A DNA stretch of 43,950 nucleotides from a virus (taxonomy: Duplodnaviria > Heunggongvirae > Uroviricota > Caudoviricetes): positions 1 to 43,950 of the IMG/VR virus record IMGVR_UViG_2778261535_000013. One strand, given 5' to 3'. Positions 31,767-33,986 of the stretch are shown here, piece after piece. Numbering within the stretch: the stretch's first letter is position 1; the number at the start of each line of letters is the position of its first letter. A program made the position numbers and the translations under genes. Below the pieces are notes generated by a model. The model saw only the letters and a program-made list of their open reading frames with translations, was not told the origin of the DNA and made no database searches.

Positions 31767-32039
31767 TTACCTCCAGATCCGTTGCTGGAAAGTGCGGGAC
31801 GGACGTGGTGGGCGTTCGGAATAAGGCAGCCTGACAGAGATTATCCAGTGCCGATAGTCGAGACTGAGAGCTTTCTTAACCTCGAACCCGCGCCTGCGGT
31901 AAGAATGAATCAGCCATTCGGCCTGTTCTTCAGTACATGGTGGGTGTTGGTACCAGTCGGTTTTAAATGCGTGTGAACGCCGCTCATGCCGGATGGCAAG
32001 GTCGGTATCAGAATTGTGAAATTTGGTTTTGTGCGCCAT
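31767..32039 (-). CDS. hypothetical protein
   Basis: 90 aa ORF with stop adjacent to the downstream gene start; no motif. Confidence 0.3.
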   Translation of the reverse strand: MAHKTKFHNSDTDLAIRHERRSHAFKTDWYQHPPCTEEQAEWLIHSYRRRGFEVKKALSLDYRHWIISVRLPYSERPPRPSRTFQQRIWR

Positions 32040-32206
32040 CTGTTTTCTCTGCTGGCGCAGCAGGTGTCAGGTGTTCAGGCTGACGTGCGAATTGTAAACC
32101 AGAATGCCAGGAAAAAACAAAACCCGCCGAAGCGGGTTAAGTGCGGGTGCGTTGAGGATGCCTGACACATCAGAGGTGGCGAGGGATTTCTCCCTCGCCT
32201 GGTCTC

Positions 32207-32362
32207 TTACTCCTCAGGTTCGTAAGCTGTGAAGACAGCGACCTCCGTCTGGCCGGTTCGGATTCGTACCTCGCAGAGGTCTTTCCTCGTTACCAGTGCC
32301 GTCACTATGACGGTTAAACAGATGACGATCAGGGCGATTAACATCGCCTTTTGCTGCTTCAT
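32207..32362 (-). CDS. hokD: Hok/Gef-family type I toxin
   Basis: 51 aa MKQQKAMLIALIVICLTVIVTALVTRKDLCEVRIRTGQTEVAVFTAYEPEE; matches the Hok/RelF family, essentially identical to hokD as recalled; the ORF track extends 19 codons upstream in frame. Confidence 0.75.
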   Translation of the reverse strand: MKQQKAMLIALIVICLTVIVTALVTRKDLCEVRIRTGQTEVAVFTAYEPEE

Positions 32363-32573
32363 AGCCTGCTTCTCCTTGCCTTTCGGCACGTAAGAGGCTA
32401 ACCTAGATTTGCCGTTCATAGATTGAGCCTCAGATTAATGTTAAGCGTTTTGCAGGACGCGTAATGTTAACTGGGGCTTTTCTCTATCTGCCTTTGGTGT
32501 TCATGCCTGAGACAGATAGCCTCAAGCACCCGCAGCCATTCTACTTAACTCCCGTCACCTGGCCAATATAAAA

Positions 32574-32663
32574 TCAATCAGAAAGGCGATCCATAAGAAC
32601 AACAGCAAGACAATAAATTGCCATTACAGCTGCAATAGCCAGCGCACATTTGAGAACCAGCAC
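32574..32663 (-). CDS. candidate small hydrophobic peptide (29 aa, GTG start)
   Basis: AGGAGG RBS 5 nt upstream of GTG; peptide (M)LVLKCALAIAAVMAIYCLAVVLMDRLSD; below the ORF-track size cutoff. Confidence 0.3.
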   Translation of the reverse strand: MLVLKCALAIAAVMAIYCLAVVLMDRLSD

Positions 32664-32710
32664 GACAACCTCCTGTATTGGACGTACACCAGTCCTGATA
32701 AATATGAGGC

Positions 32711-32731
32711 TATCTCATCATTGATGAGATA
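32711..32731. promoter_or_regulatory. perfect 21-bp palindrome TATCTCATCA-T-TGATGAGATA (candidate operator)
   Basis: direct reading; lies about 40 nt upstream of the small peptide RBS. Confidence 0.4.
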
Positions 32732-32948
32732 CAACTATTGGGTATAGTTTCTGTGATTTTGTTCTGTAGAAATGGAACACAACAACCAGTAACCACCAGC
32801 GATTCTTTAAATACGCCAAATCCGACGCAAGCTAACCTTCTAGTCCGCTTTGGGCGAAGACCGGACGTTCGATAGGTGTGAACTAGTAACTTTAAAAACA
32901 TTTAATTACCAGTAAAAAAACAAGAATATACTATCACTTTTCCAATTT

Positions 32949-33986
32949 TTAATTACCCTTATCAATTTTAAGAAATACATTTCCAATCTCATCAGAATAA
33001 TCCTGTATTATTTTTGAAATGACGGCATGATCAATGGTTGGTTTTAAGAATAAAAGTGTCACAGTAATCTGCATCAAACTAATAGCAGTAGCATGGGCTG
33101 GATCAGCCATTCCTGAATCACTTTGCCCGACCAATAATATATCATCACCAGTTTCACAGAGACCAAGCCTATTTCTCATTGCCTTGGAACCGGTGTGTAC
33201 ATTCTGACTCGCCCACTTATAATAAGGGCGCATGTGTTCTAACTGAACATCTTTCTCAATAGCTCCAAACCCCACTTTATTATGGTTAGGGAAAATATAA
33301 GATGCCCACCCATAATTATCTGCATATTTTTTGCCATATTTTTTTATTAATAGATCAAATTGAACTTTACACTCAGCTATTTCTTCAATAGTTGGACCTT
33401 TTGCTTCTAACCGGTGCTCGTACTTTTTGTGTTCCAACATTCCAGTATATGAATCAACCACTTCATGGTAGTAAAAGCGCTCAGCACACTCTTTTCCATG
33501 CTTTGCTATAAACATAGCTGTGGCCGCTACCTCATGAAGTGCTCGCCATCTCGCTTGGGCAGCATCTGCAAATCCATTCTTTAAGAGACACAAAATTTCG
33601 TTGGCGATGTGGCAAGCTCTTGCGTGATGCCGAACAACTAAATCAAAAACCACATCCTCTTCAGAGGCAGCTTGTGGTCTATAAGAACGATTGAACTCTT
33701 CACCGGACTCCGTGCATATCACTATAAGTGTTTCGAGCAAATCAAAAGCCTCTGCCCATCTTGAAATATTTCTCTCAACAAATTCATCACAAAGAGAACG
33801 ATGTTCTCTAAGCATTGCATTGGCCGAGCCAATAAGAGATTTTTTAACAACAATGGCTATTTTGGGAATTAGGTTATTAATTTCTTTTTCGATATCAGCG
33901 TCACCAGATAAATCAAGTCTCTCTTTTAAAAGGCTGTCTATGTGCTCAAGCAAAATATTATGAAAAGTATCCATGTCATATCTCAA
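32949..33986 (-). CDS. orphan 345-aa protein in an AT-rich block (candidate accessory or defence gene)
   Basis: long uninterrupted ORF in a region visibly more AT-rich than its flanks, bounded by about 200 bp of non-coding DNA on each side; no confident family assignment. Confidence 0.5.
   Translation of the reverse strand: MRYDMDTFHNILLEHIDSLLKERLDLSGDADIEKEINNLIPKIAIVVKKSLIGSANAMLREHRSLCDEFVERNISRWAEAFDLLETLIVICTESGEEFNRSYRPQAASEEDVVFDLVVRHHARACHIANEILCLLKNGFADAAQARWRALHEVAATAMFIAKHGKECAERFYYHEVVDSYTGMLEHKKYEHRLEAKGPTIEEIAECKVQFDLLIKKYGKKYADNYGWASYIFPNHNKVGFGAIEKDVQLEHMRPYYKWASQNVHTGSKAMRNRLGLCETGDDILLVGQSDSGMADPAHATAISLMQITVTLLFLKPTIDHAVISKIIQDYSDEIGNVFLKIDKGN

Follow-up and report, generated by a model that had tools for sequence, protein, structure and literature searches.

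Does a short hydrophobic reading frame beside a hok toxin gene encode a second toxin, and is the perfect palindrome upstream of it an operator? The question arises in a 43,950-nt record of a tailed virus (IMG/VR record IMGVR_UViG_2778261535_000013), which we refer to as a whole as the window. The original prediction, which was made from the DNA letters alone, described a hok gene, a 29-codon open reading frame (ORF) with a strong ribosome-binding site, and a 21-bp palindrome, and it proposed that two stacked toxin modules formed an addiction or defence cassette in a nin-like region of a prophage. We found all of these sequence features, every one of them on the minus strand, and the setting was right: the region corresponds to the replication-to-nin/Q segment of an E. 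coli lambdoid prophage. As for how the pieces fit together, we favor, with some confidence, a reading in which the region holds three separate things: a hok/mok/sok locus, a separate gene for a 29-codon membrane peptide, and a recent palindrome that is not a conserved operator.

First, judging from its sequence, the hok part is a complete, canonical hok/mok/sok locus of the hokD/hokW type. The toxin gene (32207..32362, minus strand) encodes 51 amino acids (MKQQKAML...). Its product matches HOK_GEF (Pfam PF01848; E = 3e-23, or 81.6 bits, where the cutoff is 22) and PHROG 251, "MokW-like host killing" (E = 8e-33), and RefSeq names the identical protein HokD (WP_000813254.1). The mok frame (70 amino acids; 32207..32419, minus strand), which we took from the list of ORFs, starts upstream of hok, encloses it in the same frame, and maps onto the annotated mokW of phage 933W. 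The Rfam model for the sok/hok leader (RF01794) covers 32531..32357 over the full length of the model, at 110.1 bits (gathering score 59). A promoter scan identified TTGGCC-17-TAGAAT (32538..32566, minus strand), 7 nt upstream of where the Rfam match starts; the end of the -10 box is kept in 127 of 133 copies. A terminator scan identified an intrinsic terminator for the 3' end of the mRNA (32121..32138, minus strand), with AACCCGCTTCGGCGGGTT followed by TTGTTTTTTC. We rejected an isrK-like Rfam match (27.8 bits, gathering score 50), as that site is the 3' end of the hok mRNA. With the protein family, the leader, the promoter, and the terminator all in place, a hok gene that had been called nearly certain is confirmed.

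The full-length hok mRNA is predicted, from the Rfam model and from its fold, to run from 32531 to 32116 (32116..32531, minus strand). In this fold, the tac element (32531..32520) pairs with fbi (roughly 32157..32145), with GGGUGCUUGAGG paired to CCUCAACGCACCC in the closure of the 5' and 3' ends, and the minimum free energy is -170.3 kcal/mol (z = -7.27). The "long hairpin" that had been noticed in the leader at about 32485-32519 is also there (32484..32519, minus strand), and it corresponds to the 5' hairpin that is standard in hok mRNA: its 10-bp stem (CUAUCUGUCU/AGGCAGAUAG) is present both in the fold of the full mRNA and in Rfam's structure line. The Sok antisense RNA is predicted to lie at 32411..32481 on the plus strand, with coordinates transferred from the sokW misc_RNA that is annotated in 933W. 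A candidate Sok promoter (TTGCCT-17-TAACCT; 32376..32404, plus strand) was read by eye; the promoter scan did not flag it.

By analogy, this locus would work as described for the hokD/hokW family. A stable hok mRNA would be made from its own promoter and would be kept translationally inert by the pairing of its ends; translation of hok would run through the mok frame, and Sok, from the opposite strand, would block the translation of mok and hok. The locus belongs to the same family as hokW-sokW of the Stx phages Sp5 and 933W and hokD (relF) of the Qin prophage, and it shares with them the 51-residue Hok/Gef toxin, the mok frame, the Sok antisense region, a promoter and a terminator of its own, the 5' hairpin, and the 5'-3' closure of the mRNA. 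From 32551 downstream, the DNA matches the annotated hokW/mokW/sokW of 933W at 93% identity. Experiments have shown that hokW-sokW, a close homologue, is a toxin-antitoxin system (PMC8621323). By analogy, Hok may be toxic, and be neutralized by Sok, at this copy as well. The hok part is thus already known, and hok/sok adds nothing new here. (Separately, the Hok toxin that sits beside the small ORF has a known influence on phage release.)

Second, the 29-codon ORF (32574..32663, minus strand) lies outside the hok transcript, because it ends 8 nt before the -35 box of hok. As had been predicted, it is on the same strand as hok and about 210 bp upstream (its stop codon is 211 nt before the ATG of hok), and an AGGAGG Shine-Dalgarno sequence (32669..32674, minus strand) lies exactly 5 nt before its GTG start. 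The translation is (M)LVLKCALAIAAVMAIYCLAVVLMDRLSD, and the product is a hydrophobic peptide with a single helix, MLVLKCALAIAAVMAIYCLAVVLMDRLSD: a lysine near the N terminus, a helix of about 20 hydrophobic residues, and a short acidic tail (DRLSD). The mean Kyte-Doolittle hydropathy of residues 2-24 is 2.57, which suggests insertion in the inner membrane with a single pass. Because Hok is also a lysine-led transmembrane helix, we considered whether the peptide might be a truncated paralogue of Hok; this was rejected, because the peptide is missed by HOK_GEF even at E = 1.

We found the ORF region in 2,515 of the 5,426 complete E. coli genomes, at about 2,993 places. A wider query finds 12,647 places, so only some hok loci have the ORF beside them. 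In the Stx phages, there is no small ORF, and the similarity ends within the hok promoter. Where the ORF is present, hok is linked to it on the DNA in 128 of 133 copies, and 5 copies, all from one lineage, have kept the ORF but lost hok. The small gene travels with hok, but it is not a required part of hok/sok.

We found no homologues of the peptide outside of Escherichia and Shigella, and no known copy falls below 75% identity. A protein search with an in-frame stretch of 46 amino acids, 17 of them non-coding, recovered sequences from Escherichia only, each with an identity of 75% or more. With tblastn, 50,697 phage records (E up to 10) yielded matches in just 4 lambdoid phages of E. coli. 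A scan with degenerate codons across one genome per species identified only E. albertii, E. ruysiae, and S. flexneri, plus three contigs from metagenome-assembled genomes (these three look misbinned). The peptide has no family in Pfam, NCBIfam, PHROGs, or PADLOC; its best match in PHROGs is at chance level (E = 0.74).

The ORF had been described as unannotated, which holds for the RefSeq records that we examined: the identical RefSeq record has no feature over the ORF, and it is annotated in none of 40 RefSeq records, among the matches listed. However, some GenBank/RefSeq entries do carry the 29-residue product as a "hypothetical" or "membrane protein" (ACT39199.1 and ACT43394.1 from REL606/BL21), and it is also annotated in E. 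albertii and in a MULTISPECIES entry for Enterobacteriaceae. In a literature search, the peptide string was absent from main texts and was present in just one supplementary table; it was not found in the supplement of a second paper on small ORFs.

Is the ORF a gene? The original prediction had staked the ORF on conservation in related prophages and on a coding signature, and we found both. The 29-residue frame is intact in 135 of 136 complete copies. Within the frame, there were 15 synonymous changes, 16 non-synonymous changes, and no stops; the corresponding counts for the other two frames are 9/19/3 and 7/24/0. Since 30% of changes are expected to be synonymous, frame 0 shows an excess (P = 0.024, binomial test). 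All of the replacements are conservative (mean BLOSUM62 score of +0.35, versus -0.30 expected, P = 0.06), and nucleotide diversity is lowest at the second codon position and highest at the third (0.059, 0.043, and 0.103 for positions 1, 2, and 3), as is typical of coding DNA. We therefore consider that the ORF is probably a real and conserved gene, with a coding signature of moderate significance (P = 0.02 and 0.06).

The main alternative is that the ORF is not functional: it might be young intergenic DNA that hitchhikes beside the hok promoter, is open by chance, and is spuriously translated. The narrow distribution and the shallow divergence of the family fit this idea, and so does the modest significance of the selection tests (P = 0.02 to 0.06), which draw on about 31 substitution events, given that the family is confined to Escherichia/Shigella with all copies at least 75% identical. 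Also, the absence of stop codons says little, because just 0.8% of mutations in this frame would create one. Furthermore, PGAP does not call the ORF in the RefSeq records that we examined. On the other hand, there are no indels in 136 copies of the ORF (27 distinct alleles), whereas the adjacent conserved block has several, namely, a 14-nt deletion and indels of 1-2 nt. The start codon, the stop codon, and the Shine-Dalgarno sequence are retained in alleles whose upstream flanks differ, with AGGAGA or GGGAGG as the Shine-Dalgarno sequence in divergent alleles. In shuffled versions of the window, the combination of AGGAGG, a start codon, and an ORF of 20-60 amino acids with transmembrane-grade hydropathy never arose (0 of 200). 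Given that frame 0 is clearly better than the other two and that the codon positions differ as they do in coding DNA, we view a chance ORF as unlikely.

Independent data also bear on this. The Entero67K set (Fesenko et al., PMC11188072) contains the BL21 allele, VLVLKCTLAIVAVMAIYCLVIVLMDHLSD, in cluster Escherichia_98807 (size 389), which is the same family as our ORF. It was classified there as predicted coding, with a dN/dS of 0.46, and the published table reports a weak translation initiation signal from Ribo-RET (TIS of 13) and an RPF value of 38 (PMC11188072). The classification as coding argues for a gene; the very low TIS counts would be compatible with a non-gene, and the authors of the catalogue caution that many such signals might be due to spurious translation (PMC11188072). 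The catalogue gives no context or function for the ORF, and neither "hok" nor "prophage" appears in its main text (PMC11188072). What is new here, relative to Entero67K, is the link to hok, the hotspot of variable cargo, the promoter-like element, and the palindrome series. Returning to the reading of the ORF as a gene, we propose that it is translated at a low level and is under moderate purifying selection. It is probably a small membrane protein whose role is uncharacterized; most likely, it would serve the prophage as an accessory peptide that is embedded in the membrane and targets either the membrane itself or a protein in it.

How might this gene be transcribed? Comparing the copies, we found that most relatives have a promoter-like element, TTGAAT-17-CATATT, at the position that corresponds to 32701..32729 (minus strand), with 8 of 12 matches to the consensus. 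A -10 box that ends 37 nt before the GTG, along with a matching -35 box, is present in 118 of 133 copies, and two loci with a diverged spacer (L002 and L018) keep the element as TTGAAG-17-CATATT. Thus, in most prophages, the small gene may have its own weak promoter of the sigma-70 type; it may also be read from the early-right transcript of the phage, whose direction is the same. The -35 box of this window reads TCTCAT because the palindrome overwrote TTGAAT, and therefore this copy probably depends on read-through transcription. On the plus strand, the promoter scan identified a promoter-like site, TTGATG-16-TATAGT (32721..32748; 9 of 12 matches), which is back to back with the minus-strand element and points away from the small ORF; its -10 box is kept in 113 of 133 copies.

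Could the small ORF be a second type I toxin? If so, the peptide would damage membranes, and translation of the ORF would be repressed either by a plus-strand antisense RNA or through base pairing between the Shine-Dalgarno sequence and the 3' end of the same mRNA. TisB, ZorO, ShoB, IbsC, DinQ, and Ldr, which are short type I toxins, have about 20-35 residues, one hydrophobic helix, and a short charged end, and TisB and ZorO have 29 amino acids each. The small peptide resembles them in size and shape, and it is encoded next to another type I locus, with the linkage to hok mentioned above. The predicted "type I membrane toxin" was correct in this respect, but this shape is common to many harmless small membrane proteins. 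In other respects, the ORF differs from the short type I toxins: it has no sequence similarity to a curated family, no conserved gene for an antisense RNA, and no significant structure in its leader. Specifically, the search against toxin and defence families in Pfam, NCBIfam, PHROGs, and PADLOC gave no match. The sole candidate for an antisense promoter, a weak site (TTAACT-18-TAAAAT; 32545..32574, plus strand) that was found in the promoter scan, would yield RNA antisense to the 3' end of the ORF, but just 47 of 133 copies have it; in most copies, the sequence is TGAAAT, without the key A. We found no conserved gene for an RNA antisense to the ORF: the terminator scan found no plus-strand terminator over it to end such an RNA, and there is no Rfam family. 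In the minimum-energy fold of the small ORF's mRNA, AGGAGG does pair with CCUUUCU at the end of the ORF, but this fold is not significantly better than that of shuffled sequences (z = -1.07; 31 of 200 shuffles were as good). The Shine-Dalgarno sequence is strong and appears exposed and unobstructed, which is unusual for a type I toxin. Also, the ribosome signal was obtained from BL21 that was growing normally, so basal translation appears to be tolerated. Overall, we think it quite unlikely that the ORF is a second toxin, and the proposal of two stacked toxin modules is speculation.

The defence part of the proposal is true in a different sense. Just upstream of the small ORF is a conserved non-coding block (32732..32866; in class-1 loci, homology starts at about 32866), and beyond it is a slot that is a hotspot of variable cargo. 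In this window, the slot holds a gene for a DUF5677 protein (32949..33986, minus strand; Pfam E = 5.5e-34; PHROG 27456), which has no match in PADLOC. In related prophages, unrelated genes occupy the same slot, and these are often known defence genes (PD-T7-1, PDC-S39, PDC-S06, GmrSD-like, and others). We also considered the conserved block as a small RNA, but neither strand has a conserved fold, and no Rfam family matches.

These surroundings raise the idea that the peptide is a functional partner of its neighbors, either as a membrane effector that needs no antisense RNA or as a modulator of Hok or of the defence cargo during induction or superinfection. We consider this quite unlikely. If it were true, then the conserved unit "block A - small ORF - hok" would serve the lambdoid defence hotspot as a functional flank, beyond being an anchor for recombination.

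Third, the palindrome (32711..32731) is perfect, with 10 + 1 + 10 nt (TATCTCATCA-T-TGATGAGATA), and it lies 37 nt upstream of the ribosome-binding site, close to the 40 nt that had been estimated. However, by comparison of sequences, it is not a conserved operator. It is specific to a lineage: we found the perfect form in just 2 of 5,426 E. coli genomes, and among 137 sampled copies, 2 have it, so it is not conserved along with the ORF, and an exact scan of IMG/VR found it in one contig only. Within the window, it is unique even if up to 3 mismatches are allowed. To our knowledge, it has no convincing match to the consensus sites of LexA, Fur, CRP, or IHF. In most copies of the ORF, the sequence at this position is not palindromic, and the arm lengths among copies form a series: 3 nt (77 copies), 5 nt (33 copies), 8 nt (10 copies), and 10 nt (2 copies). 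The perfect palindrome would then be a recent and derived state, perfected step by step from a non-palindromic or quasi-palindromic ancestor, and a triple change from TGA to CTC looks like a template switch. Stepwise perfection of quasi-palindromes by template-switch mutagenesis is a known mutational process, and it does not require selection.

The perfect palindrome might still be functional in this lineage, as the operator of a dimeric regulator or as a hairpin or cruciform that silences the two promoter-like elements, given that a perfect 10 + 1 + 10 palindrome is not expected by chance (0 of 100 shuffles matched), that it exactly covers the -35 positions of both the minus-strand element (32729..32724, where it overwrote the conserved TTGAAT) and the plus-strand element (32721..32726), and that the drift of the alleles toward longer arms could reflect selection rather than mutational bias, but we consider this very improbable in view of its rarity, the lack of a second copy or a cluster of half-sites in the window, the lack of a candidate regulator, and the sufficiency of mutation alone.

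If the 29-codon ORF is a gene for a membrane peptide, as we think, then which proteins does it resemble? By analogy, we think that the closest functional class is the small regulatory proteins of the inner membrane, such as MgtS, PmrR, KdpF, AcrZ, and CydX. These are in the same size class and also have one helix and a short polar tail; like them, the peptide seems to have low expression and was found only by surveys of small ORFs. Unlike the small ORF, which is carried by prophages and is restricted to Escherichia, they are encoded on the chromosome, each with a known partner protein.

The palindrome series is a natural example of how the stepwise perfection of a quasi-palindrome can inactivate a promoter element; it is illustrative and does not represent a new kind of event. 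The small ORF is a candidate for a prophage-borne membrane microprotein that is present in nearly half of sequenced E. coli, including REL606 and BL21, and yet PGAP annotates it in none of the RefSeq records that we examined. Because its position is fixed, between a slot where defence genes are swapped and hok, it is a cheap and well-defined target for work on small proteins. If the peptide modulates Hok or the integrity of the membrane, then the hok loci of prophages would need to be read differently.

The short ORF (32663 to 32574, minus strand) encodes (M)LVLKCALAIAAVMAIYCLAVVLMDRLSD from a GTG start codon, with AGGAGG exactly 5 nt upstream. When the window was shuffled 200 times, no shuffle (0/200) combined a perfect AGGAGG and a start codon with an ORF of 20-60 aa and transmembrane-grade hydropathy. 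The sequence features that the original prediction reported for hok, the short ORF, and the palindrome are all present, and all are on the minus strand. The stop codon of the short ORF lies 211 nt before the ATG of hok and just 8 nt before the -35 box of hok, so the short ORF lies outside the hok transcript, its leader, and the Sok target.

Most probably, the short ORF is a true gene that encodes a small membrane protein in Escherichia lambdoid prophages. We compared 18 annotated loci and 119 loci from IMG/VR; the latter were anchored only on the Shine-Dalgarno sequence (SD) plus the ORF's first 17 nt, with the remainder free to vary. Leaving aside copies that end at a contig end, the 29-codon frame was found in 135 of 136 copies, and the single exception has a mutated stop codon that adds two residues. 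The copies represent 27 distinct alleles without any indel; by contrast, the adjoining conserved block has a 14-nt deletion and several indels of 1-2 nt. With the anchored bases left out, changes at variable sites comprise 15 that are synonymous, 16 that are non-synonymous, and 0 that create a stop in the ORF's frame, as compared to 9/19/3 and 7/24/0 in the two other frames. Given the observed transition bias, 30% of the changes should be synonymous (binomial P = 0.024, from copies with shallow divergence). Pairwise diversity at codon positions 1, 2, and 3 was 0.059, 0.043, and 0.103. The replacements were all conservative (A/T, A/V, V/I, M/V, M/I, R/H, D/E, and the like), with a mean BLOSUM62 score of +0.35 versus an expectation of -0.30 (P = 0.06). 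Also, alleles with a diverged upstream flank retain the SD, as AGGAGA or GGGAGG. Thus, the original prediction, which had made the short ORF depend on conservation in related prophages and on a coding signature, held up on both counts.

The short ORF is already present in a large-scale microprotein catalogue: in a supplementary table, the authors of "The Cryptic Bacterial Microproteome" list the BL21 allele (NC_012971.2:1591437-1591524) in Entero67K, as a member of cluster Escherichia_98807, which has 389 members (PMC11188072). Entero67K contains sequences that are predicted to be coding by RNAcode and/or the authors' evolutionary score (PMC11188072). For the BL21 allele, the catalogue gives dN = 0.074, dS = 0.161, and dN/dS = 0.46; our own estimate of dN/dS, from different data, is about 0.46. 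The catalogue also reports 13 retapamulin start-site reads and 38 footprints, which are low counts, and its authors caution that spurious translation may account for many signals of this kind (PMC11188072). Overall, we consider it likely that the short ORF is a real, expressed small protein.

In a collection of 5,426 complete E. coli genomes, 2,515 carry the short-ORF region. Pfam, NCBIfam, and PADLOC gave no match to the peptide, and PHROGs gave just a chance-level one. A tblastn search of 50,697 phage genomes (E up to 10) found four E. coli lambdoid phages, and when one genome of each bacterial species was scanned with degenerate codons, there were matches in E. albertii, E. ruysiae, S. flexneri, and three MAG contigs. 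Among 5.8 billion proteins, there were only Escherichia entries (identity of at least 75%), named "hypothetical" or "membrane protein," and the RefSeq records that we examined have no annotation over the short ORF. The peptide family is therefore narrow, uncharacterized, and inconsistently annotated. The three MAG contigs (L138, L139, and L141) are short and are labelled as Collinsella, Candidatus Scatousia, and Haemophilus; the prophage segment is almost unchanged in them, and they are most likely misbinned E. coli prophage DNA. Separately, NZ_CP026085.1 (L005), which is labelled as DH5alpha and is 4.83 Mb, contains the prophage segment with DUF262/AAA-ATPase cargo; neither its size nor its content is what one would expect of a K-12 derivative.

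Related loci form a mosaic, with differing limits of homology to the window. In Stx phages, homology begins only at 32551 and continues downstream, so these have hok without the short ORF. In one class of prophages, homology begins at about 32706 (short ORF and hok), and in the commonest class, at about 32866 (non-coding block, short ORF, and hok). Where there was enough flanking sequence, hok was the next gene after the short ORF in 128 of 133 copies. One lineage (L017, L068, L091, L102, L131, and L143, including a Shigella flexneri genome) kept the short ORF and lost hok at about 32559, in the -35 box of hok. Its ORF is intact (allele ...LMERLSD); beyond the break, the sequence is unrelated and includes a DUF1971 gene on the opposite strand.

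Nothing about the hok locus or its hairpin is out of the ordinary: the locus is canonical, and this is already known biology. The 51-aa product of hok (32362 to 32207, minus strand) matches HOK_GEF from Pfam (3e-23) and PHROG 251, "MokW-like host killing" (8e-33); the identical protein is called HokD by RefSeq, in a genome where the region is present at 100% identity. The mok frame (70 aa; 32419 to 32207, minus strand) encloses hok. The Rfam model of sok and the hok leader matches over its full length at 32531 to 32357 (110 bits; gathering score, 59), which places the 5' end of the hok mRNA at about 32531, downstream of a promoter, TTGGCC-17-TAGAAT (32566 to 32538, minus strand). An intrinsic terminator lies at 32138 to 32121 (minus strand). 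The predicted RNA of 416 nt folds at -170.3 kcal/mol (z = -7.27), and pairing between GGGUGCUUGAGG at its 5' end and CCUCAACGCACCC close to its 3' end forms the tac-fbi closure. In the hok/sok family, this closure holds the full-length mRNA inert. The long hairpin that had been noticed at 32485-32519 is real: it is the 10-bp 5' hairpin of the hok mRNA and is also in the Rfam model. Alignment to phage 933W, with its annotated mokW, hokW, and sokW, predicts Sok RNA at 32411 to 32481 (plus strand), with TTGCCT-17-TAACCT at 32376 to 32404 as its probable promoter. Experimentally, hokW-sokW has been shown to act as a toxin-antitoxin pair and to help phage release (PMC8621323).

Two other calls lie nearby. 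A sub-threshold Rfam match to isrK, an sRNA of the Salmonella Gifsy-1 prophage (32117-32198, minus strand; 27.8 bits versus a gathering score of 50), was rejected as a separate sRNA gene, as it falls on the hok mRNA's 3' end (fbi element and terminator). RefSeq's 59-aa "hypothetical protein" at 31986-32165 (plus strand) overlaps both the terminator of hok and the beginning of the rem-like gene and looks spurious.

A putative sigma-70-like element, TTGAAT-17-CATATT, suggests how the short ORF may be transcribed: it is present in 118 of 133 copies, with its end 37 nt upstream of the GTG (TTGAAG-17-CATATT in loci with a diverged spacer), and it matches only 8 of 12 consensus positions. The BL21 copy lacks this element, yet it has a ribosome signal. 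The short ORF is co-directional with the replication, nin, and Q genes, so it could also be read from the early-right transcript. Could it be a type I toxin, "stacked" with hok, as originally proposed? The defining RNA antitoxin is not supported: the sole promoter-like site antisense to the ORF (32545 to 32574, plus strand) is present in 47 of 133 copies, a terminator scan found no plus-strand terminator over the ORF, and the putative mRNA, whose minimum-energy fold pairs the SD with the 3' end of the ORF, folds no better than shuffles (z = -1.07). We consider a toxin unlikely.

The palindrome (TATCTCATCA-T-TGATGAGATA, 32711 to 32731) is present once in the window and was not found in 100 shuffles. 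It had been proposed as the operator of the short ORF, but it is not conserved with the ORF, and its perfect form is in just 2 of 5,426 complete E. coli genomes. Alleles at the site form a series with stepwise lengthening of the arms: the commonest, TATTGAATCACTGACGAGACAG, has 3-bp arms; a further allele is ...ATCAATGATGAGACAG; TATCTCATCAATGATGAGACAG has 8-bp arms; and the perfect allele, TATCTCATCAATGATGAGATAG, with 10-bp arms, is confined to the window and its identical twin. Across L001-L137, arms of 3, 5, 8, and 10 bp occur in 77, 33, 10, and 2 copies. Through a contiguous change from TGA to CTC, the left arm becomes exactly complementary to the right one. Such changes are a signature of template-switch correction of quasi-palindromes, and this step looks like template-switch mutagenesis. 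It also removes the TTGAAT -35 of the short ORF's promoter-like element and improves the -35 of a putative back-to-back element, TTGATG-16-TATAGT (32721 to 32748, plus strand), with a -10 that 113 of 133 copies share. The latter element points into the conserved non-coding block and, where the cargo is reversed, toward the cargo gene. Judging from these alleles, the palindrome is a rare, derived state of the site rather than the short ORF's operator. It might conceivably be an operator in the window's lineage only, but there is no second site, known regulator, or conservation.

The original idea of a defence cassette fits the neighborhood but not the short ORF itself. A cargo hotspot (32867-33986 in the window, with equivalents in L002-L137) directly adjoins the conserved block on its upstream side and separates the replication genes (replisome organizer and DUF977) from the block, short ORF, and hok; it holds 39 unrelated protein clusters across 101 loci. 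Known or candidate defence cargo includes PD-T7-1, PDC-S39 (DUF7380/DUF4209), PDC-S06, GmrSD/NsnA-like, and Tmn/YobI-like; RefSeq names include HEPN, AIPR, restriction endonuclease, and DUF262 with AAA ATPase. There are also metabolic morons (QueH, HAD hydrolase, and MFS transporter). The window's cargo is a DUF5677 protein (32949 to 33986) without a match in PADLOC, which makes its gene a candidate for a defence gene not yet described. On the downstream side of the variable cargo, the conserved block (32732-32866, roughly 135 bp) has no conserved RNA fold or Rfam family; its outer boundary falls within a short hairpin, GTCCG...CGGAC, and the block probably serves to anchor recombination when cargo is exchanged. 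Interest is modest overall; the main value lies in the short ORF, as a well-defined, widespread, and unstudied microprotein that adjoins hok and a defence hotspot.
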